From positions 1-15,391 of the forward strand of contig JANOTL010000082.1 of the NCBI GenBank assembly GCA_031416315.1: a stretch of DNA of 15,391 nt, read 5' to 3'. Source of the DNA: Pseudomonadota bacterium (GTDB lineage: Bacteria; Bdellovibrionota_B; Oligoflexia; Oligoflexales; CAIYRB01). The notes below the pieces were generated by a model. The model worked only from the letters and a program-made list of their open reading frames with translations, had not been told where the DNA came from and ran no database searches. The translations under genes and the position numbers were made by a program. Below, in pieces: positions 307 through 15,391 of the stretch. The number at the start of each line of letters is the position of its first letter. Position 1 is the first letter of the stretch.

Positions 307-330
307 AGAGTGATCAAGGGAGGTTCGTTC

Positions 331-3300
331 GTGCGCGCGCCCGGCTCGATTTTGGCACGGTTATGCTTCTGGCTCGCTGTCATCAGCGTAGCCCCGAGCT
401 GCTCAAAATCGTCGATCGCTGCGAAGTCCAAGAGCGGCGCGCCGGAGGCAGCCGGTCCATACTCGCAAAAAAAGTTCGCCGCGGGTGAGGCGGCCGCCTG
501 GTCGCCGGGCGCGGCACTCGCCGGTTTCGAGCTCGCCTTTCCCGCGGGTGCGCTGACCACTCCGGTCGTGATCACGGCGACCCTGCTAGGGACTCCGGCT
601 GCACCAGTCCTGCGCCTTGAAAGCACCCCTCCCGTCGTCATCCCCGGCATGACCGTAAGACCGCCGACGGCTCTGACCGCGTCGCTCGGCGCCGCCTCCG
701 CCTCGGCCATCTTCTTTTTGTCTAAGGACGGAGCCGAGGTTCAGCTCGCGCGCACCGCAGTTCCCGACGGTCTCACGCTGGCGCTGCCGTATTTCGGGGA
801 GATCCGCGCCGCCGTTCCCGCACCGCTCCCGGAACTCACCGACCTCAGCCTCGCCTTCGCGCCGCCCGCCGTGATCGACACGTCGAGCGATGTCATTTTC
901 ACGTTTACAACGACGCATCCCGGCACCTTCGCCCTTAGCGTCGAAGGCGCGGCTGTCGCCAGCGGCGCCGCCTCCAGCGGCGCCAACGAAGTCGCGGTGT
1001 CCAGCAGCCTCTTTCCTTCGCGCGACTTCACCGCGGTTCTCCGTCTCGACGTCACCGACGCGCAAGGACGCAGCGTAACAGTCGAACGCGAAGTCGCCCT
1101 CGATCATTCGCCGCCTGCGGTAACGCTGTCGACCGTCCCAGCCCTGCTGCAGGGCGGCACGGCGCTCACGGTGGAGTGGACCGCAATCGACGTCTTTCCG
1201 ACGTCGCCGCCCTCTTCAATCTTGGAATACTTCGACGGTCAGTGGCACACGATCGTAACGAGCGAAGACCCCGTCGCCGCCGTCAACTGGACGGTTCCGC
1301 CGATTACAGGGTCGATGCGCTTGCGCGTTTCCACCACCGACGCATCTGGCAAGACCGCGAGCCTCGAATCCTCCGTGATCGTCGTCGACTCGACGCCGCC
1401 CGCGCCGCCGCAGGCGAGTTTCGTCGCGCCGCGCGAGCTCACGCGCCTGACCGAGTCGCCGAACCTCGCCCTCACGCTCGCCACTTGCGCCGACGCCGCG
1501 CAGATGCTTCTCAGCGAAAGTACGAGCGCGCCGGCCGAAGGGTGGCAAGCTTGCAGCACCGACCCTGGAGCGTTGACCGCGGTCCTCGCGCCGGCGCCAG
1601 CTGGCTGGCGAGAGCTTCGCATCTTTTTGCGCGATCTCGTCGGCAACGTATCTGCGGGCGGCCCGGTGACGGTTTTCTTCGAGCCTAGCGACGCCGATGT
1701 GCATGTGTTTGGCCAACCGACGCAGTACTCGGTCGCGACCTTCGGTGCTGAGATGCGCGGCGACACTTATCATGCGCCGGTTTCCTTTGTGAAGATCTCC
1801 GGCCTCTGGGTCGTCAGCGACTACATCAACAAACGCGTGCTGATTTACAACGGTGCGATGGGGACTGACGACTATCTGCAAATCGGCGGCAAGCGCGCCC
1901 CGTTCGAGCCAGTCAGCGCCGGCGTCATCGGGCGTCCAGCCCAGGTTGCGAGCAACGGCCAGAATTTGATCGTCGTCGATCAAGACCATGCGCGAGTCTT
2001 GATTTGGAACCAACTGCCCACCCGTTCGTTCCAGCCGGCTGACCTCGTCATCGGGCAGAGCAGCTTTTCAGGCTACACGCCTTGGGCTGGAGGGCCAGGC
2101 CCAAGCGCCGCGTCGTTTTACGAGCCGTTCGGCGCCGTCATGGTGGGGAAAAAGCTGGCGATCAGCGACTTCACTCACGACGCAGGTTCCGGCCGTGTGA
2201 CGGTGTTCAATCATCTGCCGACCGCGAACGGCGCGAGCGCCGACACCGTCCTCGGCCAACCGAGCATGACCTCCTACGTTCCGCAGCCGCTGAGTGCCGG
2301 GCAAATTAGCCTTCCCGCGCAACTCGATTCCGACGGCCTACGCCTTTCGGTGCCGAGCAGCTATCCAATGCGCGTGACCATTTTCAACAGCCTTCCGAAC
2401 GCCTTGCCGCCCGGTTCGTCGGCGCAAGTCGTCCTCGGCCAAACGAGCTTTATGTCGTCCGATTACGGGTTAACCCGTTCGAGTTTTTTTCGCCCCATGC
2501 ACGCGGCATTTGCCGGCGACCGCATCTACGTGTCGGATTGGCCCGGAAGTCGCCTCATGTACTGGAGCGACGAAACCTCCGAAGGCAGCGCCGGCGACGC
2601 CGCCGGAGTCGTCGGCCAAGCGGATTTCGTCACGAACCCCGGCGGCTACTCGCAGTCTTTGCTCGGAGACGCGTTCTTCTCGCGTTACGATCCCGATGAC
2701 GATGAGACCTACGTCGCCAATCGCAATGCCAGTCGCATCGCCGTTTACGCTGGTCGTCCCGACTCCGGCGCCTCGATCAAGCGCATCATTGGTCAGCCGA
2801 ATCATACTGCCGTCATGCCCAACCGACGGAACGCCGGGACGCCTGGCGGCCTCGTTGAAGCCTTTGGAGTGTGGGCGACCGACACGCGCCTCTTGGTCTC
2901 CGACGGTGCCGCGGGGCGGGTCCTCGTCTACGACCGAGCGCTTCCGAGCGTCGACCCGCTGGCCGTCATCGGTAAGGCGGACTCGTCCGACACCTGCCTT
3001 TTGCGCGCGTGCACGCCTTCGGCGACCGTGATGACCTCGCCGCGCGGGATCACGATGGACGGTTCCGGCAAGCTCTACATCGCCGACTCCGCGGCCAACC
3101 GTGTGCTGGTTTACGACGGCGTCCCGACCGTGACGGGTGCCGCCGCGGCGCTCGTCCTTGGGCAAAGCGACTTCGCAGGTTCGGCGGCGAACGCCGGTGC
3201 CCTAAGTGAAACCTCTCTCAGCAGCCCTTCGAGCTTGGCCGTCGCGAACGGCATGCTGTGGGTCGCCGACAGCGGCAATCACCGCATCCTCGGTTTCCCG

Positions 3301-3834
3301 CTGCCGATCGTCGCCAACCGTCCCCAGGCGACGATCGTCCTCGGTCAAAGCGGATTCACCACGGCAAGCTCGGCGACGACCGCCACGACCTTGAGCCATC
3401 CGACGGCGATTCGCGCCGCGAGCGGCCGCCTTTGGGTCGTCGACGCCGGCAATGCCCGGGTTCTCGGCTATGCGCTCGCCGCGGCGAGCGGCGATGCCGC
3501 GGAGATCGTCCTGGGCCAAGCCGATTTTACCAGCGGCCTCGGCAACGTGGCGAAGGGCCGCTTTTCCACGAACATGAGTGACGCGCTGTGGGTCGTCGAC
3601 GGGGATCTCTTGGTCGGCGACGCCGGAAACAGCCGCATGACCGGCTACCAACTCGCCGCTGTTGTTTCAGGTCAGGCGCCGACGTGGACGATCAGCGGCC
3701 GCGCGCGCCCGCGCGCTTTCGCGGCGAGCGCAGGCGCCGACCCTTGGTTCTACGTCGCCGAGGACGGGCACGTCGGCACCAACCGCGTCATTGGCGTCAA
3801 AAAGACCAAGCTAGCGACCATGCGCGATCCGTGA
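331..3834 (+). CDS. Large putative lipoprotein: ZU5-like N-terminal region, Ig-like/Big repeats and C-terminal NHL-repeat beta-propellers
   Basis: ORF 310..3834, but GTG 331 has a GGAGG RBS 7 nt upstream and is the more likely start. Hydrophobic signal ends in VAPSC. FPAGALTTPVVIT is ZU5-like. DHSPPAVTL, DSTPPAPP and RDLVGNVS are Ig-like linkers. About 10 repeats of [VI][VLI]GQ.[DS]F alternate with L.[VI]AD..N.R[VI]L (NHL). Confidence 0.85.
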   Translation: MRAPGSILARLCFWLAVISVAPSCSKSSIAAKSKSGAPEAAGPYSQKKFAAGEAAAWSPGAALAGFELAFPAGALTTPVVITATLLGTPAAPVLRLESTPPVVIPGMTVRPPTALTASLGAASASAIFFLSKDGAEVQLARTAVPDGLTLALPYFGEIRAAVPAPLPELTDLSLAFAPPAVIDTSSDVIFTFTTTHPGTFALSVEGAAVASGAASSGANEVAVSSSLFPSRDFTAVLRLDVTDAQGRSVTVEREVALDHSPPAVTLSTVPALLQGGTALTVEWTAIDVFPTSPPSSILEYFDGQWHTIVTSEDPVAAVNWTVPPITGSMRLRVSTTDASGKTASLESSVIVVDSTPPAPPQASFVAPRELTRLTESPNLALTLATCADAAQMLLSESTSAPAEGWQACSTDPGALTAVLAPAPAGWRELRIFLRDLVGNVSAGGPVTVFFEPSDADVHVFGQPTQYSVATFGAEMRGDTYHAPVSFVKISGLWVVSDYINKRVLIYNGAMGTDDYLQIGGKRAPFEPVSAGVIGRPAQVASNGQNLIVVDQDHARVLIWNQLPTRSFQPADLVIGQSSFSGYTPWAGGPGPSAASFYEPFGAVMVGKKLAISDFTHDAGSGRVTVFNHLPTANGASADTVLGQPSMTSYVPQPLSAGQISLPAQLDSDGLRLSVPSSYPMRVTIFNSLPNALPPGSSAQVVLGQTSFMSSDYGLTRSSFFRPMHAAFAGDRIYVSDWPGSRLMYWSDETSEGSAGDAAGVVGQADFVTNPGGYSQSLLGDAFFSRYDPDDDETYVANRNASRIAVYAGRPDSGASIKRIIGQPNHTAVMPNRRNAGTPGGLVEAFGVWATDTRLLVSDGAAGRVLVYDRALPSVDPLAVIGKADSSDTCLLRACTPSATVMTSPRGITMDGSGKLYIADSAANRVLVYDGVPTVTGAAAALVLGQSDFAGSAANAGALSETSLSSPSSLAVANGMLWVADSGNHRILGFPLPIVANRPQATIVLGQSGFTTASSATTATTLSHPTAIRAASGRLWVVDAGNARVLGYALAAASGDAAEIVLGQADFTSGLGNVAKGRFSTNMSDALWVVDGDLLVGDAGNSRMTGYQLAAVVSGQAPTWTISGRARPRAFAASAGADPWFYVAEDGHVGTNRVIGVKKTKLATMRDP

Positions 3835-3910: not shown

Positions 3911-4726
3911 TTAAAGCGAGCAACTCGCCAGTATCAACTCGTTGCAATCCTGACCACCCGACTGCACGCAGCGCTGGCGAGCCTGCATTCCGGCGGCGTT
4001 GATGGCCGGCATGCCGTTGCCGCCCGCGAGGCCCGCGCCCCAGGCGCCGGTGCTCGGATCGCGTTTCACGACGCCGCAGCCCTTGCGGTAGCTCAGCGCG
4101 AGGGTGCAGTCGTCGGAGGCGTTCGAGCAGAGGCTCATCGCCTCGGCTAGGGCGGCGGCGGCGCTCGCTTTGTCCTTCGACGCGATCGCGGCGCCGAGCT
4201 TTGGGGAGTAGGCGATCGCGCCCCAGGAGCCGTCGCCGTTGACCGCTGCTGAGCCGAAGTTTTGCACGTAGATGTGCTTGCCGTCCGCGACGGTGATGGC
4301 TAGGCCGACGCCGAGCTCCGTGTAAATCGGGTTCAGAATGTTGGCGCGGTGGCCCGGGCTCGCCATCCACGCGGTGAGGGCGGCTTCGGGCGAAGTGTAC
4401 GAAGTGCTGCCAAAGCCGTTGTAGATGTTTTCGCCAGTCGTACTCTGCGCTTCGTAGCCAAGGGCCAAGATGCGATCACGCGGGGTGAGGCCCTCGGGCG
4501 AATTGTGGCCGAAGTAGTTACGGCGCGACTGGTCGTCGGCGTGGATCTGCGCCGCCTGCTGCAGGAAGCCGGAGACGCGCAGCTCGCGCACGCCGTTGGC
4601 GCGGCGCTCGGCATTGGTGAGGTCTACGACCTTTTGAACGAAAGCGGGGTCGTGCTCCTGCGCGTAGGCGTCGACTGCAAGGAAGGAAGAGAGGACGGTC
4701 AGTGCGATCAGGATCTGCGTTACCAT
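3911..4726 (-). CDS. Secreted CAP/SCP (YkwD-like) domain protein with a C-terminal DUF4189 domain
   Basis: Sec signal ending AYA-Q. CAP motifs: LTNAERRANG, AAQIHADD, YFGHNSPEG, GENI, WMASPGHRANIL, GVG, VQNFG. The C-terminal WGAIAYSP...C...C...CG...WGAG...C...C...CS pattern (6 Cys) is typical of DUF4189. Confidence 0.9.
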   Translation of the reverse strand: MVTQILIALTVLSSFLAVDAYAQEHDPAFVQKVVDLTNAERRANGVRELRVSGFLQQAAQIHADDQSRRNYFGHNSPEGLTPRDRILALGYEAQSTTGENIYNGFGSTSYTSPEAALTAWMASPGHRANILNPIYTELGVGLAITVADGKHIYVQNFGSAAVNGDGSWGAIAYSPKLGAAIASKDKASAAAALAEAMSLCSNASDDCTLALSYRKGCGVVKRDPSTGAWGAGLAGGNGMPAINAAGMQARQRCVQSGGQDCNELILASCSL

Positions 4727-4975: not shown

Positions 4976-6523
4976 ATGACGCGCCTCGCTCCTTGCCTCG
5001 CCTTCGCCGCCGCCGCCGGTGCCTTCGTATTCGCCTGCAAATCGACGGACCCCACCAAGAGCCGGACGCTAGACGCCACCGTCCTACCCGGGACCACCGC
5101 GGTGCCGCCTCGCGAGGACGTCTCGTATCGCGCGCTCGGCGTTTCGCCCGACTGCAATGAGAAGGCGTTCTCCTATTCGGAGCTGCTCGAGATCGCGCGC
5201 AGGCCAGAAATCAAGACGCAACAAGAATTCCTCGACGCCCTGCCGAAAGGCATCATGCAGACCTTCACGTTGATGCACGTCAGTGAGAGCGCGCAGGCCG
5301 AGGGCGTCTCCGAGGACTTTCCCGGCGCGATCCGCATGACGCAGGACGGCCGCCTCGTCTTTCGCTACACCTGCGATCCGCGCTCGCCGGTGTACGGCGG
5401 CATCGAGGTGATGCGCTTCGACGAGCCGACGCAGAGTTTCCATTTCACCGAGATCCACTTCCCCAACGAGATCCCCGAGCGTGTCCGCGAGGACGCCGAG
5501 GACTGCGACGGCTGCCACGACCATGGCGGCGGCGGGCTCAGGCCACATTGGGCGATGTATCCCGACTGGCCGGGATTCTTCGGCAGCCACGACGATTTCT
5601 TCCCGACGGGGACGCCGAAGGACGTCGAGCAAGTCTCGCACGCAGCGGGCTGGGCACCGACTGCGGTCGCAAAGGAGCACGAAATCTTCCGCCGGTTCCT
5701 CGACGCGAAGGTCCTCAAGAACGACGCGAAGGGCGTGTCCCCCGATCCGTGCTACGCGGCATTGCCCTGGCCCAAGCCCTTCCTCGAAGGGGGTACGGTG
5801 CCGCCCCTCTACGCCGAATATCCGTTCGGGACCTACAATGCTCACGCCGGCGGTCGTATCTACGCTCTCAGGCCGAACCTCAAGCTGACCGAGATCTTTT
5901 CCAAGCTCCTGGCGCGACGCAACACGCGTCACATACTCGCGCACGCCGAGTATCCGAAAGTAAAGCTCCTGCTAGCGTTTGAAGCCGCGCGATGCATGGC
6001 TCGGCCGCTCGCGGGTAATCGGAAGATCAGTTACGCGCAGCTACACGGCTTGATGAAAAAGGCGCTTCCTGCGTACGTGGCACCGCTCGCGAGCCAGGCG
6101 ACGGCGGTGGATTTACGCGGCAACAAGATGCTGCACCACGATCCGCGCCATCCCAAAAGCCTCGCCCAAAGTCTTTTCGGCGCGGCCAAGGTCATGGGGC
6201 TCGAAGGCAGCGACTGGACCCTCGTCTACAGCGGCGACTCGCCCGCCTTCGAGACCGGCGCCGGTCCCGGCGCCAACGCCGATTTCCCAGGCGACTTGCC
6301 GCTCACCGCATACGTCCAGCACGAGATCCTGGCCGACGTCGCCACCGACCCGCGCGTGGCCGACGCGGCGCTCGCGAGCCTATGGACGCGCGGCACCGGC
6401 GAGACTGACGACTTCGGCGAGCACTTCGCGTGTATCGACCAACTCGCGGGACCGACAGTGTTCAAGAGCGAAGCGGCGCGTGTCGGCGTTTGCGACGCCT
6501 TGGCGAAGCTGATCCAGCCTTAA
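4976..6523 (+). CDS. Putative lipoprotein with one CxxCH heme c motif, function unknown
   Basis: GGAG RBS at 4965-4968. Lipobox AFVFAC (Cys21). CDGCH near 5503-5517 is followed by LRPHWAMYPDWPGFFGSHDD. 515-aa ORF with GC3-biased codons. Confidence 0.8.
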   Translation: MTRLAPCLAFAAAAGAFVFACKSTDPTKSRTLDATVLPGTTAVPPREDVSYRALGVSPDCNEKAFSYSELLEIARRPEIKTQQEFLDALPKGIMQTFTLMHVSESAQAEGVSEDFPGAIRMTQDGRLVFRYTCDPRSPVYGGIEVMRFDEPTQSFHFTEIHFPNEIPERVREDAEDCDGCHDHGGGGLRPHWAMYPDWPGFFGSHDDFFPTGTPKDVEQVSHAAGWAPTAVAKEHEIFRRFLDAKVLKNDAKGVSPDPCYAALPWPKPFLEGGTVPPLYAEYPFGTYNAHAGGRIYALRPNLKLTEIFSKLLARRNTRHILAHAEYPKVKLLLAFEAARCMARPLAGNRKISYAQLHGLMKKALPAYVAPLASQATAVDLRGNKMLHHDPRHPKSLAQSLFGAAKVMGLEGSDWTLVYSGDSPAFETGAGPGANADFPGDLPLTAYVQHEILADVATDPRVADAALASLWTRGTGETDDFGEHFACIDQLAGPTVFKSEAARVGVCDALAKLIQP

Positions 6524-6589: not shown

Positions 6590-6652
6590 TAGCTAGTTTC
6601 TGGCGCGGAACGAGCCAGAAGCTATCCTGAGGGCGAAGCCCGAAGGATCTCG
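6590..6652 (+). repeat. Left inverted-repeat arm: outer hairpin plus REP-like ATCCTGAGGGCGAAGCCCGAAGGATCT
   Basis: TAGCTAGTTTCTGGCGCGGAACGAGCCAGAAGCTATCCTGAGGGCGAAGCCCGAAGGATCTCG. Confidence 0.95.
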
Positions 6653-6780
6653 TCGATTACAACGCCGACCTCCGCAGACAAATCACGACGCTCATGATTA
6701 CCAAGGTCGACGATCGCGTCTTTCTTGGCGCGGCTAAGCCCCTTGAGCTGACGCTCGCGGCGCCGCGCAGAAGGGAAGTC
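6622..6780 (-). pseudogene. Remnant of a small GIY-YIG (YhbQ/UPF0213-like) nuclease gene, C-terminal part only
   Basis: Minus frame from 6780 reads DFPSARRRERQLKGLSRAKKDAIVDLGNHERRDLSAEVGVVIDEILRASPSG*. This matches the family tail as I recall it, A..RE.Q[IL]K.W.R.KK..LI...NP.W.DL. There is an in-frame TAG at 6826-6828, no start codon and no N-terminal GIY/YIG motifs. Confidence 0.65.
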
Positions 6781-6949
6781 CAGACGCAGCAGAATGAAAA
6801 GCGATGCGGCAACGCTCGCCGCGGGCTACGGCTCTATCATTGGCATCTATCTGCGGCAGATGATCAAGAAGCAGAGCGATACCTCAGCGAAAGCAGCATA
6901 GAGCAAACGCCACGGCGGGCCGAAAGGCGCGAGCGGAGGTGCAATCGGG

Positions 6950-7012
6950 CGAGATCCTTCGGGCTTCGCCCTCAGGATAGTTTCTGGCGCGTTCCGCGCC
7001 AGAAACTAGCTA
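6950..7012 (-). repeat. Right inverted-repeat arm, containing a perfect 14-bp-stem hairpin (6978-7008)
   Basis: CGAGATCCTTCGGGCTTCGCCCTCAGGA-TAGTTTCTGGCGCG-TTC-CGCGCCAGAAACTA-GCTA. Its last 3 nt are the stop codon of the dikinase-like gene. Confidence 0.95.
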
Positions 7013-9289
7013 CTTGTGCCCGGAGAACTCGCGAACCTGTTTACTAACGAACTGCCCGTTTTTGAGCAGTTTGAACTCGAAGTCCAGCGCCCGCGGCTTG
7101 TCTTCGTCCCATAGCGACCACTCACAGCCGTGGGTCACCGCTTTCGGATAATAGTCCGCATTGGTCCGGCAGTAGGCCAGCTCGACCGCGCGCGCGATCT
7201 CGACCATCGCCAGTGTTTGCTCGCGCGTCATCACCTGTCGCGTCATCTCCGGTTTGTCCGCCCGCGGCTTCGCAAAGCGCGTCACGGTGATCGAGGTCGG
7301 CACCTCGGCCGTCAAAAGGACCGCGATCCCCTGCTCCGACCAGCTGCCGGGTGCCGGGTTGGTCACGAGGTTATTCTTGTCGTTTGTCGAGATCGAGTAG
7401 CCCGACAAAGTGTCCGTGTTCAAGACCCGCGTGATTAGCACGGCGTTGGCGTCGATCTTCGACTCGAGATCGTAGGCCGGGACGATCGCGAGTCCCATCG
7501 CCGCGGTCGCGTGGTCGACGCGCGCGAAGCTCCGCTCCTCGATCGCGCGCAAGTTCCACAGGCTCGCATAGGCGGCCTTCATCGCGCACTCGACGGTGTC
7601 GGGCACCAGCTTCTTCTTCAGCGCTCCGACTTTGTTGAGCTTAGTCTGGATGAAGCACTCGCTCGAGTCTTCGCTCAAGCCGGGCCGGACCTTGAAGCTG
7701 TCGTAGAGGCCGGCGCCGTTGAAGCCCGTGATGTCCTCGGCGTTGGCGCTCGAACGGACTTTCACGCTCGCGACCTCGCCGAACGTCGCCTTGATCTTCG
7801 CCTTGACCGGCGAAGACAGCGCTTCCGGAAGCTTCGCTCGCAGGAAGAGCGCCTGCACCTCGGCCGCTTGCGCCCTGCGTTCCGACGTCGACAAAGTTCC
7901 CGCCTTTTCGGCCAAGACCAGGACGTCGACCTTCGCTTTGAGCGCCGCGTTCGCCGGATCGGCGAGCATCTTCGGATAAAAGCCGACCGGAACCGCGACC
8001 CCTCTGGGGCTGAGATCGTAGCCGAGCCGCGCGCTCATCGTGCCTGCGTTCGCCGCTCGACCGAGCACGTCCCGCTGCGCCAAGAAGCCGATGTTCGCTG
8101 CCTTGGAGCCGTACTTTGTGCGCGCCGCCAGGCAGTCCGCCGCGTCCTCGTCGCAGAGCTCGTCGACGCTCGCTACGACTTCGGTGTCGTCGTAGCCCAT
8201 CGGCACCCAAGGCTTCGCCATGCGCTCGGCCAGGCGCCTCTCGACCTCGGCTTCGGTCGCTGGCTCGATCCTGAAGCCGTCCATGCGCACCGTCAGCTTC
8301 ACGGGCTTACCCGCGAGCCCTAGCCATTCCGCGGTGTCCGGCGCCGCACGGCGTAGCATCATGTTCGGAGTATCGCGCTCGCGCGATTTCAAGTTCACGT
8401 GCGAGTTGGGGTCTTGATAAGCTCTCGTTACGACGCCGGCGACCACCGTCAGATCGAGCGGCAGCTCGTCGAAGACGACGATGTCGGTGGCGCGCAGCGT
8501 GTCTTGGGACGTCGGAAAGACCTGCAGGTAACCGTACGCCACGCCCGGGTTCAAGGGCAGGTAGTCGGTCGCCCCGAGCACGTCGTTCATGGACAGGACA
8601 CGCAGGCCGAGGGCGGAGAGATCGGCCGCGACCGTGGCGGTCGTTTGCTGCACGCCGGTCGCGACGAAGGCCATGTTGACGTTCGGGAGCTTGAAGAATG
8701 GCATCACCGTCTTCGCAACGCGGAGAATGGCCGCCTCGCTCGCCACGTCCTGCGGGAAAAACTGCAGGCCGTAGATGTCCTCTTTCGTCGCGTCCAGCCG
8801 ATAACGCTGGATCGCCCCCGCGACGTAACGTTTGTCGTCGGTGAAGTAGGTGACAAGGTTGTAGGCCATCGGTGCCTCTGGAATCTGCAGATATTCCCGC
8901 GCGAAGTTGTAGTGCATGAGCGCCGACTGCGGAACGGCGCCGTTGACCGTGAAGTTGCCGTTCATGAAGTGGACGACGGGGGCCTCGGGCTTACGCGCGT
9001 CGATCAAGAACTTCACCGACTTTCCGTGGACGCCGAGCTGGTGGTCGTTGCTCGCGAACATCTCGAAGAGCTCGACGGTCGAGATCTTCGCGACCTCGCT
9101 CAGTGCGCGGCAGTCCTGGTCGGCGCAGTCGCTAGCCAAAGCTTGCGCGGCGTCGACCGGATCTTTCGTCGGCCGGGCGACCGGCATCTTGACGACGGCT
9201 TTGGGCTCGCCTTCTCCCCGTTTCGTGCAGCCGGCGATGGCCGAGACGACCGCGACAAGGGCCAGGGTCGAGAGGAGCTTTCTTTTCAT
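7010..9289 (-). CDS. Lipoprotein of the PEP-utilising dikinase superfamily: novel N-terminal domain + phosphohistidine-like domain + PPDK_N ATP-grasp domain
   Basis: Probable start ATG 9289 (MKRKLLSTLALVAVVSAIAGC, lipobox IAGC). His-domain-like VAGVVT.....NSHVNLKSRERDTP (His codon 8399-8401). PPDK_N motifs: YGSKAANIG, PRGVAVP, VRSSANAEDITGFNGAGLYDS, YASLWNLRA, DFEFK, KQVREF. Confidence 0.85.
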   Translation of the reverse strand: MKRKLLSTLALVAVVSAIAGCTKRGEGEPKAVVKMPVARPTKDPVDAAQALASDCADQDCRALSEVAKISTVELFEMFASNDHQLGVHGKSVKFLIDARKPEAPVVHFMNGNFTVNGAVPQSALMHYNFAREYLQIPEAPMAYNLVTYFTDDKRYVAGAIQRYRLDATKEDIYGLQFFPQDVASEAAILRVAKTVMPFFKLPNVNMAFVATGVQQTTATVAADLSALGLRVLSMNDVLGATDYLPLNPGVAYGYLQVFPTSQDTLRATDIVVFDELPLDLTVVAGVVTRAYQDPNSHVNLKSRERDTPNMMLRRAAPDTAEWLGLAGKPVKLTVRMDGFRIEPATEAEVERRLAERMAKPWVPMGYDDTEVVASVDELCDEDAADCLAARTKYGSKAANIGFLAQRDVLGRAANAGTMSARLGYDLSPRGVAVPVGFYPKMLADPANAALKAKVDVLVLAEKAGTLSTSERRAQAAEVQALFLRAKLPEALSSPVKAKIKATFGEVASVKVRSSANAEDITGFNGAGLYDSFKVRPGLSEDSSECFIQTKLNKVGALKKKLVPDTVECAMKAAYASLWNLRAIEERSFARVDHATAAMGLAIVPAYDLESKIDANAVLITRVLNTDTLSGYSISTNDKNNLVTNPAPGSWSEQGIAVLLTAEVPTSITVTRFAKPRADKPEMTRQVMTREQTLAMVEIARAVELAYCRTNADYYPKAVTHGCEWSLWDEDKPRALDFEFKLLKNGQFVSKQVREFSGHK

Positions 9290-9390
9290 GCTTGCGCCTT
9301 CACGCACCTAGGTCCAGCGACGTAACTCAGTATAGGCACGGCACTGTCGCGACGCTCTGCTTTTGAGGGGAAGCTCCGAGAACCAGTACC

Positions 9391-9419
9391 AATTTCGGTC
9401 GCTCGCGCCCGCACCTTGA
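9391..9419 (-). promoter_or_regulatory. Candidate sigma28-type promoter of the dikinase-like gene
   Basis: Minus strand TCAAG (9419-9415), 16 nt, then CCGAAATT (9398-9391), about 100 nt upstream of ATG 9289. Confidence 0.4.
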
Positions 9420-9482
9420 CCAAAACTTGCGAGCTGCCCTTGCCGGCAGTATTCTGCCAATGAAGATCAAGACTTACCTGGA

Positions 9483-10199
9483 GTGCAAAACGTGGCGGGC
9501 CTTTCCGACCTCCCGGACTTTTTCGGCAAGATGGGAGCCACCAGCGGCGCACCCGCGACGCCGCTCGAGTTCGTTCTGCAGCTGACCTCCGGTGCGGTCG
9601 CGAGCGGACTGCTAGCCTGGTTCTACGCGCGTCACGGCCGCTCCTTGGCCGATCGCCGCGCCTTTGCCGCCAACTTCGTGCCGGTGACGGTAGCGACCCT
9701 CTTCATCATTTCGGTGGTGAAGTCGTCGTTGGCGCTCTCGCTCGGCCTCGTCGGCGCCTTGTCGATCGTCCGCTTCCGGACCGCTGTGCGCGAGCCTGAG
9801 GAGCTCATCTACCTTTTCATCTGCATCGCGCTCGGCCTCGGCTTCGGCGCCGGCGCCTGGCTCGTCTCGGGCCTCTCGTTCGTCGCGCTCGTGATCGTCC
9901 TCTTTCTCGTCAGCCTCGTTCGGCGCCGTGCCAATGGCAGCGGCAGCGGCCTCTTCATCGTCATTCAGGGCCCGCAGTCACCCGCCTTCGACGTTCAAAG
10001 TCTCTTGCAGCTCTTGGCGAAACACGTCCGCCGTTCCGCCCTGCGCCGTTACGAGGTCGGCGACGGTCGCACCGAGGCCGCCTTCAGCATCGAGGTCGCG
10101 TCGAGCGCCGTCCTTGCGACCCTAGTCTCCAGCGTGCGGGCGCTCGATCCGAGCGCCCGTCTCGTCCTCTACGATCATCAGGGAAAAACCCTCGAGTAA
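9483..10199 (+). CDS. DUF4956 family membrane protein (MgtC/SapB-like TM region plus C-terminal ACT-like domain)
   Basis: Signature VKSSLALSLGLVGALSIVRFRTAVREPEELIYLF.CIALGLG.GAG, 4-5 TM segments and a soluble C-terminal alpha/beta region. Start uncertain (GTG 9483 or ATG 9531). Confidence 0.9.
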   Translation: MQNVAGLSDLPDFFGKMGATSGAPATPLEFVLQLTSGAVASGLLAWFYARHGRSLADRRAFAANFVPVTVATLFIISVVKSSLALSLGLVGALSIVRFRTAVREPEELIYLFICIALGLGFGAGAWLVSGLSFVALVIVLFLVSLVRRRANGSGSGLFIVIQGPQSPAFDVQSLLQLLAKHVRRSALRRYEVGDGRTEAAFSIEVASSAVLATLVSSVRALDPSARLVLYDHQGKTLE

Positions 10200-10209
10200 G
10201 GTCTTGAGC

Positions 10210-10899
10210 ATGCTGCGAACCTTAGTCGAGCGCTCGACGCCCCGGCTGGAGCGCAAGTTGATCGCCGACGCGGCGGGCGGCAGCGACGTCGGGGCGCTCG
10301 TCTGGGCCGTGAAGACCCTGCCGGCAATGGTGCGCGAGCCTTATCCACCGCGCAGCGTCCACAGCCTTTATTACGATACCGAAGATCTGGCGTTTTTCCG
10401 GGAGCACGCCAACGGCTTGGCCGAGCGCTGCAAGCTGCGCGCACGCTGGTACGGTCGCCCCGGAGAGCGGCCGATGCAGGCCCTGGCGCGCGCGACGAAC
10501 GTCGTCCTCGAGCTGAAGACGCGCTCGGGCGACGTCGGCGGCAAGCTCCTCGTGCCGCTTCGTGAGACGCCGCGGAGCCTCGACGCGCTCGCGCGCGCGA
10601 AGGACTTCGCCCCTTGTCCGATGCCGGTTCTGCTACCGGAGTGCATCGTGTCGTACGACCGCCGTTACTTCGCCTGCGGTACGAGCGACCTGCGCCTCAC
10701 GATCGACTACCGCTTGCGCTGCAGCTCGTTTGGCGGCGACGAGCGCGGCGTGCCGCTCGGGGAGGGCGCCGTGATCGAGCTCAAGGCCAAACCCGAGCAC
10801 GGTCTCGCCCTAGCCGACCTTGCCGCCGCGCTCGGCCTGCCGCCGAGCAAGAACTCGAAGTACCTACGAGCCCAACGCGTACTGAAGCGGTTTCTCTAG
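10210..10899 (+). CDS. VTC-domain (polyphosphate polymerase-like, CYTH/triphosphate tunnel metalloenzyme) protein
   Basis: Motifs RLERK, SLYYDT, KLRARWY, LELK, SYDRRYF, RLTID, IELK, SKY occur in the canonical order. ATG 10210 follows TAAGG and lies 10 nt after the DUF4956 stop, so the two are probably an operon. Confidence 0.9.
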   Translation: MLRTLVERSTPRLERKLIADAAGGSDVGALVWAVKTLPAMVREPYPPRSVHSLYYDTEDLAFFREHANGLAERCKLRARWYGRPGERPMQALARATNVVLELKTRSGDVGGKLLVPLRETPRSLDALARAKDFAPCPMPVLLPECIVSYDRRYFACGTSDLRLTIDYRLRCSSFGGDERGVPLGEGAVIELKAKPEHGLALADLAAALGLPPSKNSKYLRAQRVLKRFL

Positions 10900-11515: not shown

Positions 11516-13276
11516 ATGACGCGCCGTTTCAGCCGCCATCCCCAGTCGTGCTTTGGCAAGCTCACGCTCGTCGCGCTAATGCTCGCAACCTTCCCCCTTG
11601 CCACCTCGTGCCTCTCGCGCGACGGCCGCATGGGCGGCAACGGCGGCGTCGGTGACGGCGGCGCGGCCGTCCTCGCCTCGATCGGCGGCATCTCCGACCA
11701 GGACCTGGCCCGCCCCGATCTGGGCTTCTTCTTGGCCTGCAACAACGGCATCCGCCTCAAAGGCGAGGCGAAGAAAGACGGCGGCAAGGAGTTCGTGCGC
11801 TTCTCCGGCGACGGCATCGAGGACGGCAAGACCTCCTGCTCGATGGAGATCCGCGCCGACGTCAAAGACGAGAATTACATCTGGTTCGCCCGCGACAAGG
11901 GCGAGCCCGTCAAAGGCTTCCTTTACGGCTCGAACGAAAAGCTGGTCGAGAAGCGCTCTCTGTCTTTGACCCTTTACAAGCTCTACTCCATCAAGGAAGC
12001 GTCGGAAGACTTCGCCGCGACCGTGGCGGTCGAGCTCGACTTCGCCGAGGGCGCGACCGCGCCCGACGCCGCGAAGTCTTCGGCCAACCTCGAGTGCGGC
12101 GATAAAAAGCACGGCGGCACCTACGTCAAAGGCGAGGGCAAGCTGGCGACCCTGAAATTCCCGAGCCTCAAGGTGAAGGACATGAAGGGCGTGAAGTGCG
12201 AGAAGGTCGTCATCCTCGTCGACCAGGTCTCCGCCTTTACGGGCGAGACGGCGGCAGTGGAGCTCCTCGAGTTCAAGGACCCGAAGAAGGCCGACGACCT
12301 AAAGTTCCCGACCGACCCAGCCAAGCGCTACCTCTTGAAGGCGACCCCCACCGGCGGCATCGACGTCGGTGCCGAGCTCGTCGGCCCCTGTCTCCGCTAC
12401 GAGGCGCCCAAGTGCCTCGACATGGTCGAGTTCGACAAGTTCCCGTTCACGAAGAATTACATGGTCGCTTTGGTCGAAGGCAAAACCAACGCCGGAGAAG
12501 GCGAGCGCGTCGCTTACTACGTCGCCGTCGGCGAAGCCGGCATCAACCCGCAATCGGGCATGCTCGACCGCGCGGCGATCAACGCCGCACTCAAGGCCGA
12601 CGCCACCGAGGCGCAAAAGAAAGCCTTCCACTTCTATGCCGAGGCTCTCGGGGACGAGCTCTTCAAGGCGCCTTTCGACGCCAAGGTGATCTCCGGCGAA
12701 GCCCTCGCCGCCCACAAGGTCTCGCTCGAAGAAGTCGCCGTCACCAAGAAGGTCATGTTCCTCAACCTCCACAAGATCTGGGTCCACGGCTTCCAAGCCG
12801 TCGACGAGGCCGCGCTCGCCGCCAAGGCCGAGGCGGCGAACGGCGCCGTCTGGTTCGCGACGGTCAAAGGCAAAAAAGACGCGCAAACAGACGTGGAATT
12901 CGTGGTCACCGGTTTCGACAAGTACTTGCGCTCGGCGAAGGCCCCGGCCCTCGTCGCCGAGAAGCCCGTCTTCTTCAAGGACACGCTTTTCATCGAGGAC
13001 CTCAAGTCGGCGCAGCCCTCCGAGCGCTGGCGCGTCTACGCGCTGAAGGGCGCCGCGATGGCGGAAGCCACCTGTGAGCTCGAGAAGCCCTACCTCCTCG
13101 ACTTCCAGCCTGAGCTCCTCGCGACTGAAGCGAAAGACCTTAAGCTCGATCTTTGCGAGATCGCCAAGGACAAGTTCAAGCCCGAGCTCCTCGACGGCAG
13201 CTGGAAGCTGGAAGCCAGCTACCAAGCCATGGGTTGGTTCGTCGCAGGCCACTGTCCGGGCTGCAGCGGCACCTGA
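11516..13276 (+). CDS. Putative lipoprotein, Lys/Glu- and Cys-rich, unknown function
   Basis: CAGGAG RBS at 11504-11509. Signal ends in LATSC (Cys32). Codon bias is very strong (AAG, GAG, TTC, GTC). Several Cys pairs, and a C-terminal HCPGCSGT. Confidence 0.8.
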   Translation: MTRRFSRHPQSCFGKLTLVALMLATFPLATSCLSRDGRMGGNGGVGDGGAAVLASIGGISDQDLARPDLGFFLACNNGIRLKGEAKKDGGKEFVRFSGDGIEDGKTSCSMEIRADVKDENYIWFARDKGEPVKGFLYGSNEKLVEKRSLSLTLYKLYSIKEASEDFAATVAVELDFAEGATAPDAAKSSANLECGDKKHGGTYVKGEGKLATLKFPSLKVKDMKGVKCEKVVILVDQVSAFTGETAAVELLEFKDPKKADDLKFPTDPAKRYLLKATPTGGIDVGAELVGPCLRYEAPKCLDMVEFDKFPFTKNYMVALVEGKTNAGEGERVAYYVAVGEAGINPQSGMLDRAAINAALKADATEAQKKAFHFYAEALGDELFKAPFDAKVISGEALAAHKVSLEEVAVTKKVMFLNLHKIWVHGFQAVDEAALAAKAEAANGAVWFATVKGKKDAQTDVEFVVTGFDKYLRSAKAPALVAEKPVFFKDTLFIEDLKSAQPSERWRVYALKGAAMAEATCELEKPYLLDFQPELLATEAKDLKLDLCEIAKDKFKPELLDGSWKLEASYQAMGWFVAGHCPGCSGT

Positions 13277-13672: not shown

Positions 13673-14674
13673 TCAAAGGCGCCAGTAAAAGCCCACGTCG
13701 GAGGCCGGCTGCACGCCGGCCTGGTCGATTTTCTCGCCGTCGAGATCCTTGCCCGACATGACGAAGTACTGCATCCCGATGCCGACCCGCATCTGGAAGC
13801 TCGACCACACCCATTGGTGGGCGACCGTCAGGCGGAAGAAGTTCGACTTCAGCTGCTCGAAGGCCGTCTGCTCGATGCGCGTCGTCATGAGGACCTTGTT
13901 GCCGTTTGCCCGCGAGTACTCACCAGTGAGCTGGAAGCGCTCCTGCGCTAGGCCTGTGATCGACTGGACCTGGATCGACTGCTGGGTCAGAGAGCTTTCC
14001 CCCGCCTCGTCCTTCGCCTGGTTCTCGGTCGTCGCGACCGGCTTCTCGTCGCCCGCCGCGGGCGTCTCCTCGGCCTCGGCCTCGGCGGGCGAGGGCTCGG
14101 GCGCCTTCGTCTGCTCGTTGCGGCTGTCGTAGTCGGCGTCCGGGTGCTTCGTCTCCCAGAGCTTGCGTTGCCCCTTCTCGGAGAGCTTCGCGTGCACCTT
14201 GCCAAAGCCTTTGCCCCAGAACGTGTGCAGCTTCAAACGCGGCGACAGCGTGTTCGTCCAACTGATCGACGGGCGCACGATGCGCGCGTCGAGCTCCTGG
14301 AAGTGCTCGTCGACGCTGCCCCAAAGGAAGGTGCTCTTGCTCAAATAAGCTGCGCGCATGCCGACCGCGATCAGGTGCTCGCTGGTGCGAAAGACGGTCG
14401 CCTTGCCCTGAATCGTCGTCGCGCCAACGGCGGTGGAGATCAGGTCGGTGCCGATCATCAAGGATCCGGTGAGTCCGACCTCGAGCTCGGTGCCGATCTT
14501 CACCTCACCCTCGGCGAGGGTCGCGGCCGTGAACTCCTCGACCAGGGTGTAGCGGTCGGACTCGCCCGAGGCGGCTGCGACGACGGCGGCAGGCTGCGGC
14601 CCTTGGGGCTCGCCTTCCGAGCCCACGGCAATGCCGGCGCCCCCCCAGGCGATGGCCAGTGGCAGGAGCCTCAT
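13673..14674 (-). CDS. Probable outer-membrane beta-barrel protein with an acidic low-complexity loop
   Basis: The listed TTG start (14842) overlaps hisS, so ATG 14674 (MRLLPLAIAWGGAGIAVG) or 14704 is more likely. Alternating amphipathic strands (FQLTGEY, FRLTVAHQWVW, FQMRVGIGMQY) and a C-terminal DVGFYWRL resembling a BAM beta-signal. Confidence 0.7.
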   Translation of the reverse strand: MRLLPLAIAWGGAGIAVGSEGEPQGPQPAAVVAAASGESDRYTLVEEFTAATLAEGEVKIGTELEVGLTGSLMIGTDLISTAVGATTIQGKATVFRTSEHLIAVGMRAAYLSKSTFLWGSVDEHFQELDARIVRPSISWTNTLSPRLKLHTFWGKGFGKVHAKLSEKGQRKLWETKHPDADYDSRNEQTKAPEPSPAEAEAEETPAAGDEKPVATTENQAKDEAGESSLTQQSIQVQSITGLAQERFQLTGEYSRANGNKVLMTTRIEQTAFEQLKSNFFRLTVAHQWVWSSFQMRVGIGMQYFVMSGKDLDGEKIDQAGVQPASDVGFYWRL

Positions 14675-14804
14675 GGAAATCCGTTGGTTTCCTTGCGAGC
14701 GCATGGACGGGCGCGGACTCCATGTAGTATGGATGGCGATCTCATTCGGTAGTAACGCTGATAAGTTAGCCCAAAACCGCTCTGGGTGGAACGGAAAGGC
14801 ACAG

Positions 14805-15391
14805 ATGACCACGCGCGCCAGGATAGAGCCCAGGAGGCTCAAGGGCTTCCGCGACTATCTACCCGATCAGATGGCGACCCGAACCGCGATCGTCGACGCG
14901 ATCCGCGCCGAGGCCCGCATCGCCGGCTACGCTCAAATCGGCACTCCGGCCCTCGAGTACGCGGACACGCTCCTCGGCCAGGGCGGAGCCGAGACGGACA
15001 AGCAGGTTTACCGCTTCAAGGACCACGGCGACCGCGACGTCGCCTTGCGCTTCGACCTCACCGTGCCGTTCGCGCGCTTCGTCGCCGAGCACCAGAGCGA
15101 GCTCTTCTTCCCGTTCAAGCGGCTCCAAATCGGCGAGGTCTGGCGCGGCGAGAACACGCAAAAAGGCCGCTACCGCGAGTTTTGCCAGTGCGACCTCGAC
15201 ATCATCGGCGTCGACTCGCCGTCGGCCGACGTCGAGATCCTCTCGACCTTCCACAAGATCCTGGGCCGCGTCGCCACCGGTCCGTTCACGATCAGCGTCG
15301 GCAACCGCGTGATCCTCTCCGCGCTGATCAAGAAGGCTCTGCCCTCCCTCGAGAGCGAGACGGCGGCCCTGATTGCCCTCGACAAGCTGGC
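14805..15391 (+). CDS. hisS: Histidine--tRNA ligase, N-terminal part (runs off the window)
   Basis: Not in the ORF track because there is no stop in the window. Reads MTTRARIEPRRLKGFRDYLP...TPALEY...YRFKDHGDRDVALRFDLTVPFAR...IGEVWRGENTQKGRYREFCQCDLDIIG...ALDKL, i.e. class II motifs 1 and 2 of HisRS. AAAGG RBS upstream. Confidence 0.96.
   Translation, partial: MTTRARIEPRRLKGFRDYLPDQMATRTAIVDAIRAEARIAGYAQIGTPALEYADTLLGQGGAETDKQVYRFKDHGDRDVALRFDLTVPFARFVAEHQSELFFPFKRLQIGEVWRGENTQKGRYREFCQCDLDIIGVDSPSADVEILSTFHKILGRVATGPFTISVGNRVILSALIKKALPSLESETAALIALDKL

Follow-up and report, generated by a model that had tools for sequence, protein, structure and literature searches.

The DNA stretch analyzed here, hereafter the window, is the whole of contig JANOTL010000082.1 (15,391 bp) from a Pseudomonadota bacterium (assembly GCA_031416315.1), whose genome is 6.36 Mb in size and 93% complete. 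It contains a gene for a predicted exported dikinase-like lipoprotein, which is oriented head-to-head with a gene for a DUF4956 membrane protein, and the latter is followed by a gene for a VTC-type triphosphate tunnel protein. This layout had been proposed in a preliminary description of the same DNA, and it was confirmed by open reading frame (ORF) calls and Pfam families. The divergent starts are separated by 193 bp (9290..9482), close to the roughly 190 bp estimated in that description. The intergenic region occurs once in the genome, and a search of these 193 bp revealed no promoter of the sigma-70-like type. The DUF4956 gene starts with GTG at 9483, the exact start being uncertain, and the VTC gene begins 4 bp past the DUF4956 stop codon. 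The kinase CotH was described as missing from the window; indeed, the 11 main ORFs of this entire contig gave no Pfam match to CotH.

Domains and conserved residues of the three proteins

The dikinase-like protein (7010..9289, minus strand; ATG at 9289, stop at 7010) is 759 amino acids long and is composed of a lipoprotein signal, an N-terminal domain, a phospho-His-type domain, and a C-terminal ATP-grasp domain. The signal peptide (residues 1–21; 9227..9289, minus strand) has basic residues, a hydrophobic stretch, and then a lipobox, AIAG followed by C21, where lipidation is predicted. The Cys column is kept in eight of the nine closest homologs. The N-terminal domain (approximately residues 55–245; 8555..9127, minus strand) has the invariant residues K93, D97, R99, H126, Y148, Q176, and D181. 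A search with residues 1–400 revealed no Pfam or PDB match for this domain, nor for CBM45 starch-binding modules or the GWD central domain. It is presumed to bind the acceptor. Atlas look-alike searches with this domain and with DUF4956 gave best scores of 0.83 and 0.85, which are leads only.

The His (swivel)-type domain (approximately residues 246–345; 8255..8554, minus strand) lies N-terminal to the ATP-grasp. Its motif is QDPNSH297VNLKSRE, with the family form QDxNSHVNLKS, and His297 (codon 8401-8399), the putative phosphohistidine site, is conserved in 120/120 homologs. GWD1_pHisD does not match the window protein; a weak match was seen in two of 14 family members, with the best E-value (0.002) under the cut-off. 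The ATP-grasp (PPDK_N) domain (7025..8122, minus strand) conserves K396, R512-SSxNxED, E738, and K750-Q751-x-R753, likewise in all 120 homologs. These residues are presumably nucleotide-binding, as in rifampin phosphotransferase (RPH) and PPDK. PPDK_N is the sole Pfam family on the protein (residues 410–604, E-value 8e-14, 52 bits against a cut-off of 27), and no PEP-utilizer or phosphoenolpyruvate (PEP)/pyruvate-binding domain was found with Pfam; the ATP-grasp ends the protein. The PPDK_N match, the His297 motif, and the lipobox bear out the initial assignment as an ATP-grasp/His dikinase-like protein with a lipoprotein signal.

A profile of 100 homologs matched PEP synthase 2OLS (E-value 3e-16), 5HV6 (5e-16), and also 5FBS, in the C-terminal half only. 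The Listeria chains 5HV6 and 5FBS are RPH entries (PMC12167813; here and below, the cited sources are used to the extent of the portions available). In the PDB profile search, the ATP-grasp was less close to PPDK than to the water dikinases, namely PEP synthase and RPH. Membership in any of these families was rejected: the protein scores 31–33 bits against NCBIfam cut-offs of 598–740 for PEP synthase and PPDK, from which it also differs in domain order, and 22 bits against 999 and 14 against 1300 for RPH and PigC, respectively.

The DUF4956 protein (9483..10199, plus strand; 238 amino acids, E-value 1e-14) is a predicted membrane protein with a hydrophobic N-terminal half, the conserved sequence GALSIVRFRT, and a soluble C-terminal part; the hydrophobic segments lie within residues 60–145. 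It is weakly similar to MgtC (Pfam E-value 0.01; atlas score 0.77).

The VTC protein (10204..10899, plus strand; 231 amino acids, E-value 4e-18) has neither a signal nor a membrane segment. Y56, R79, R81, K105, K114, R153, R164, D168, E192, K194, and K219 are invariant across 105 aligned sequences. A profile built from VTC parts only, excluding the dikinase part of a fusion described below, matched Vtc4 in the PDB with an E-value of 4e-28 and Vtc2/Vtc3 with 1e-10 to 2e-16, while inorganic triphosphatase was matched weakly (0.004). Counted on the profile alignment, R79, R81, and E192 align with R264, R266, and E426 of Vtc4, whose replacement served to inactivate the complex in yeast (PMC9911596). 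The protein is thus likely to be of the catalytic Vtc4 type, in line with the initial interpretation. No SPX domain or Vtc1-type membrane subunit was matched in the VTC or DUF4956 protein. A dedicated search for longer, fused VTC forms found none; this is weak evidence because a fusion was found by another route.

Linkage of dikinases to DUF4956 and VTC

The closest dikinase orthologs (54–57% identical) keep the head-to-head layout, and the orthologs derived from genomes constitute one clade with support 1.0. On contig G031:C485, VTC-DUF4956 is divergent from a lipoprotein-dikinase pair, with identities of 57% for the dikinase, 51% for DUF4956, and 35% for VTC. The metagenome loci L270 and L271, which come from one organism and are the sole metagenome loci above 50% identity, repeat the layout (dikinase 54%, DUF4956 43%, VTC 32%). 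The orientation is the same on G036:C296 (L130), but the C-terminal part of DUF4956 abuts the dikinase His motif near position 770 and the inner halves of both are missing, by deletion or misassembly. Immediately upstream of the dikinase ortholog, L133 (11180-12547), L271 (3015-4511), and L009 (69-1400) encode a Cys-rich lipoprotein that weakly matches Lcl_C; the L009 contig stops 1.4 kb upstream of the dikinase yet still carries this lipoprotein. These lipoproteins are 35–44% identical in the three relatives and were not found in the window genome; they are candidates for a dikinase substrate or partner.

A separate association was found on another dikinase branch. On G099:C9 and G100:C385, from one genus, DUF4956 is followed by a single frame including VTC, a signal-like segment, a helical domain, and the His motif (L135 2265-6674; L136 7916-10936). 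The complete copy of 1469 amino acids adds PPDK_N, and the unknown domain comprises about 700 amino acids. The frame may be a true fusion or may reflect a lost stop codon before a second start.

Among 131 genomes of the window's class, 40 have DUF4956 and 12 have a close dikinase. At 26 loci in this class (26 of the 44 DUF4956 matches outside the window genome), CotH was found at eight, a dikinase at three, and an arylsulfotransferase-like (ASST-like) protein at five by Pfam or six by our own profile, and never two of them together. The ASST-like protein stands beside the DUF4956-VTC pair in L138, L139, L140, L143, L164, and L167, and at three of these loci a further CYTH-like protein, whose N-terminus is hydrophobic, is encoded as well.

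A larger sample was taken from myxobacteria (301 genomes, Myxococcales phylum). DUF4956 was found in 153 genomes, with 177 matches, 150 of them listed. From the 113 listed matches lying at least 9 kb from a contig start, 100 loci were analyzed with approximately 9.5 kb fetched on each side and our own profiles. VTC is present at 95 of these loci, CotH at 41, a family dikinase at 11, CotH together with a dikinase at two, and an ASST-like protein at two; 49 have none of the three partners. The 11 dikinases lie within about 9 kb, six of them adjoining the pair, while 0.6–1.4 are expected from 2–5 copies per genome. The linked dikinases are distant from the window dikinase and are distributed on several branches of both trees.

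In a tree of concatenated DUF4956 and VTC sequences (49 of 112 entries used), the window pair falls in a clade of 20 with a Shimodaira–Hasegawa-like approximate likelihood ratio test (SH-aLRT) support of 97. CotH is in the operon in 13 of the 16 dikinase-free entries of this clade, which agrees with the preliminary statement that DUF4956-VTC pairs usually sit beside CotH. The dikinase-linked entries branch first, and therefore the tree is silent on which partner came first.

At the genome level, DUF4956 is present in 100 of the 117 myxobacterial genomes with a dikinase (E-value up to 1e-50) versus 53 of the 184 without (odds ratio 14.5). For CotH, the corresponding numbers are 140 of 167 with and 13 of 134 without (odds ratio 48), and 147 of the 153 DUF4956 genomes have CotH or a dikinase. 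CotH is present in four of 14 control genomes; three of these also have DUF4956 and VTC, while Bacillus subtilis has neither. We take B. subtilis CotH to work in the mother-cell cytoplasm, where ATP is present; if so, this case fits a model in which DUF4956 and VTC supply exported kinases.

The dikinase family itself is large, with 1,686 clusters at 50% identity (E-value up to 1e-30). Among 125 representatives that start with Met and have at least 600 amino acids, 85 have a hydrophobic N-terminus by a crude score, so that the family is predicted to be mostly exported. In long members, the dikinase is accompanied by Fn3, cadherin, Calx-beta, or RTX domains. The representatives P0123, P0152, P0177, P0129, and P0200 are up to 3,227 amino acids long and contain repeats of the Fn3, cadherin, Calx-beta, LRR, or TSP1 type; two have two dikinase modules, one has GH43, and one has a protein kinase domain. 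None of the 148 representatives contains a CotH, DUF4956, or ASST domain, and VTC occurs only in the known fusion, as judged by our own profiles, which covered all 148; the Pfam scan of long representatives left out 30.

By a heuristic classification, the 120 closest homologs include 48 lipoproteins, 57 non-signal "GFL" forms, and 15 others or truncated forms. The C379/C386 pair is present in 48/48 lipoprotein forms and 0/57 GFL forms, while C545/C568 and C707/C722 are present in all. In the GFL branch (P0011-type proteins; L012, L013, L067), a conserved MxGFL(P/R) start replaces the signal peptide. The GFL forms constitute one branch in the tree, mostly from Actinomycetota, and therefore a single loss of the signal is indicated. 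Neighbor clustering at 76 dikinase loci revealed no conserved partner in more than eight loci. The window encodes another predicted lipoprotein (4976-6523, plus strand; 515 amino acids), which contains a CxxCH motif and matches no Pfam family. In L035, a homolog of it (24% identical over 322 amino acids, E-value 3e-19) immediately precedes a family dikinase, and in L053 a weaker homolog immediately follows one.

A possible supply of phosphoryl donor to exported transferases

It is proposed, with a probability of about 0.45, that VTC and DUF4956 supply a set of exported transferases with a phosphoryl donor; these transferases would be interchangeable, and the window dikinase would be one of them. 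The periplasm is not known to have a general ATP pool. DUF4956 would bind VTC, and the two would form an inner-membrane unit that turns cytoplasmic ATP into a phosphoryl donor, with VTC polymerizing phosphate. DUF4956, to judge from its sequence a plausible conduit, would conduct the donor to the periplasm. There the dikinase, presumably lipidated, would draw on this donor and phosphorylate, via His297, an acceptor in the envelope or outside the cell, the phospho-His swinging from the ATP-grasp to the N-terminal domain as in starch and rifampin dikinases. Dikinases pass the beta-phosphate of ATP on by way of a phospho-His and leave AMP, and the window protein would do likewise with the residues conserved in its 120 homologs. 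CotH kinases and arylsulfotransferase-like propellers may be parallel clients of the donor.

Within this donor-supply model, polyphosphate is the somewhat preferred donor because the Vtc4 chemistry is conserved. ATP itself is a less favored but serious candidate, because the ATP-grasp is intact and CotH is a kinase. A broader version is doubtful: a VTC-type machine would make polyphosphate at the inner membrane and send it into the periplasm to power exported dikinases, CotH kinases, and sulfotransferase-like propellers alike, the dikinase using the donor directly or rebuilding ATP, so that phosphorylation would have an economy of its own beyond the cytoplasm.

Several observations weigh against the donor-supply model. 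The ATP-grasp is intact, and therefore the dikinase probably needs an adenine nucleotide, which export of polyphosphate only would not supply; this is the weak point of the model. The DUF4956 profile matched no Vtc chain in the PDB at E-values up to 5, and thus none of the yeast VTC membrane subunits. The window dikinase is divergent from DUF4956-VTC, so the three genes are not one operon. The genome also encodes PPK1 and PPK2, and therefore VTC is unnecessary for ordinary polyphosphate. The lipobox is missing in 57 of the 120 closest homologs, largely in one Actinomycetota branch; the expected conservation of the lipobox thus stands for eight of the nine closest homologs and 48 of 120 overall, and fails across this large branch.

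Linkage, too, is limited. None of 76 genome loci of dikinase homologs (mostly 39–53% identical) has DUF4956, VTC, or CotH in the surrounding DNA. DUF4956 and VTC are missing at 78 of 80 metagenome dikinase loci, many of them on short contigs (45 of 80 reach 10 kb); CotH is upstream at two of the 78. The paralogous dikinases of the window genome, including the second one on contig C176, and those of its relatives are also unlinked to DUF4956 and VTC. Among the 50 genomes behind the 76 loci, whose completeness is not given, 17 match DUF4956, 16 match VTC, and 32 match neither; at least 10 of the 32 carry a lipoprotein-form dikinase, including large myxobacterial assemblies. Obligatory coupling of the dikinase to DUF4956/VTC was therefore rejected, and some dikinases must obtain their donor otherwise or must have been sampled from incomplete genomes. 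In the myxobacterial sample, DUF4956 is present in one of four genomes with the window's dikinase subfamily. The control family GH18 also co-occurs with DUF4956 (83 of 111 genomes with versus 70 of 190 without; odds ratio 5.1), and the p values for co-occurrence are untrustworthy because kinship and completeness inflate all counts. What remains of the anticipated linkage is that the orthologs and some separate, distant branches are linked, while the majority of dikinase homologs are encoded away from DUF4956/VTC.

The preliminary description held that the dikinase takes the role of CotH. The sole CotH match in the genome is a predicted lipoprotein on contig C198, unlinked to the window locus, and thus the idea that this organism lacks CotH was rejected. 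Dikinase, DUF4956, and CotH are all present in 93 of the 301 myxobacterial genomes. Because of these two observations, replacement of CotH by the dikinase is restricted to the locus; at the genome level the two usually co-occur. Even at the locus level, CotH is found at two of 11 dikinase loci versus 39 of 89 others (p 0.19), and mutual exclusion is not significant. The CotH gene on C198 (L007 7337-10602) is divergent from a gene for a purple-acid-phosphatase-like metallophosphoesterase, with which it possibly constitutes an exported kinase/phosphatase pair.

A first alternative is a self-sufficient ecto-dikinase that uses ATP from lysed prey or other cells and either phosphorylates an acceptor on the surface or in the environment or strips ATP to AMP and phosphate, with the clustering reflecting shared handling of envelope phosphorus. 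The phyla with these dikinases include predators. Many family members are large adhesin-like surface proteins, most homologs stand alone, and this explanation accounts best for the unlinked members; the 32 genomes with neither partner gene also favor it. GWD also passes its His phosphate to water (PMC13553574). The ecto-dikinase explanation leaves unexplained the repeated adjacency on several branches and the in-frame VTC fusion. Furthermore, the odds ratio of dikinase-DUF4956 co-occurrence is about three times that of the control, and the co-occurrence persists within GH18-positive and within GH18-negative genomes. On balance, this alternative is rather unlikely, although the best of the three.

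Under a second explanation, VTC is a cytoplasmic triphosphatase or signaling enzyme controlled by DUF4956 as an MgtC-like sensor. No export would then take place, and the exported kinases would provide input or be neighbors under shared regulation. The weak match of DUF4956 to MgtC and not to Vtc1 is compatible with it, as are the tunnel-fold residues, which are common to triphosphatases, and the weak match to inorganic triphosphatase. The VTC profile is, however, far nearer to Vtc4 than to triphosphatases. In addition, an HlyD-type adaptor cluster was found at 44 of the 100 myxobacterial DUF4956 loci and an outer-membrane efflux protein cluster at 14, and these neighbors of DUF4956-VTC indicate transport. 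This explanation is thus improbable.

Pyruvate dikinases are reversible. Least probable is that the dikinase runs in reverse as a periplasmic ATP regenerator, passing phosphate from polyphosphate to His297 via the N-terminal domain and making ATP from AMP, so that it serves CotH and does not replace it. It would meet the need for ATP outside and would reconcile the Vtc4 chemistry with the intact ATP-grasp, and it fits the presence of CotH in 101 of the 117 dikinase genomes (with all three genes in 93), the CotH-dikinase neighbors in L185, L188, L285, and L290, and the CotH lipoprotein of the window genome. Against it, 47 of the 153 DUF4956 genomes have CotH but no strong dikinase match and so do not need it. 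The ATP-grasp is nearer to the water dikinases than to PPDK, and for water dikinases a reversal driven by polyphosphate is expected to run uphill. In addition, no dikinase is named for published cotH/polymerase/DUF4956 sets in the available portion of the report (10.1101/768473).

The donor-supply model remains the preferred reading. Of the overall interpretation given initially, the linkage at the locus, the lipobox in close homologs, and the Vtc4-type VTC are retained, while CotH replacement beyond the locus and general linkage are not.

Other features, known systems, and significance

Upstream in the window, a 1174-amino-acid NHL-repeat protein with a lipoprotein-like start (310-3834) and a predicted secreted CAP/DUF4189 protein (3911-4726) are encoded. 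Beyond the VTC gene lie a lipoprotein-like ORF of 586 amino acids (11516-13276) and an ORF of 389 amino acids (13673-14842), neither with a family match, and a histidyl-tRNA synthetase gene cut by the contig end (14631-15391). No plasmid match was found. A 423-bp element (6590-7012) has 63-bp terminal inverted repeats (97%); the stop codon of the dikinase gene falls within its right arm. On contig C68, a 2-kb stretch bounded by nearly identical ends contains an ORF of 464 amino acids that is DDE transposase-like by eye, and five weaker copies are present elsewhere. The element is likely a non-autonomous insertion sequence derivative.

The genes for CotH, the VTC-type polyphosphate polymerase, and DUF4956 have been reported as accessory genes of Gram-positive pel loci, where their function is only speculated on (10.1101/768473), and VTC and CotH genes are listed in NELoc-2 of Clostridium perfringens (PMC2879425). 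As in the pel-associated set, a kinase gene accompanies adjoining genes for VTC and DUF4956 at the window locus. It differs in that the enzyme is a divergent His/ATP-grasp dikinase lipoprotein, CotH is elsewhere in the genome, and neither pel genes nor other genes for polysaccharides were found in the window. The locus is a variant of this known, unexplained gene set, with the dikinase partner as the new element.

The distribution of VTC in eukaryotes has been treated elsewhere (PMC10657179). Like the eukaryotic complex (Vtc4/Vtc3/Vtc1; PMC9911596), the window pair combines a tunnel domain nearest to Vtc4 with a small membrane protein. The eukaryotic complex couples the synthesis of polyphosphate to its passage through the membrane, whereas activity and translocation are putative for the window pair. 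Unlike that complex, the window VTC is a stand-alone protein without SPX or membrane segment, and DUF4956 does not match the VTC membrane subunits. The dikinase shares with GWD1 the order of acceptor domain, His domain, and C-terminal ATP-binding domain (PMC13553574), but lacks a CBM45 match, has an N-terminal domain without a family match, and bears a bacterial lipoprotein signal. With RPH, PEP synthase, and HpeHI (PMC12167813), it shares a homologous ATP-grasp and an invariant His. It differs from them in its His motif (QDxNSH, not T/SxxGGxxxH), its domain order, the lack of a PEP/pyruvate barrel, its predicted export, and its scores far below the NCBIfam cut-offs. No literature on an exported or bacterial GWD-like dikinase, or on donor export by DUF4956/VTC, was found in a search outside which most subscription journals lay.

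Export signals are borne by thousands of bacterial proteins whose kinase folds depend on ATP, despite the presumed lack of ATP in the periplasm. If VTC and DUF4956 supply the donor, this would explain how exported CotH kinases and dikinases can work, and bacteria would have, besides PPK and independent of it, a second polyphosphate polymerase, one akin to that of yeast. Both the locus of three genes and the fusion of VTC to a dikinase are small systems in which this can be tested directly. Even without such coupling, the predicted exported starch-dikinase-like family with its novel putative acceptor domain is a new enzyme target.

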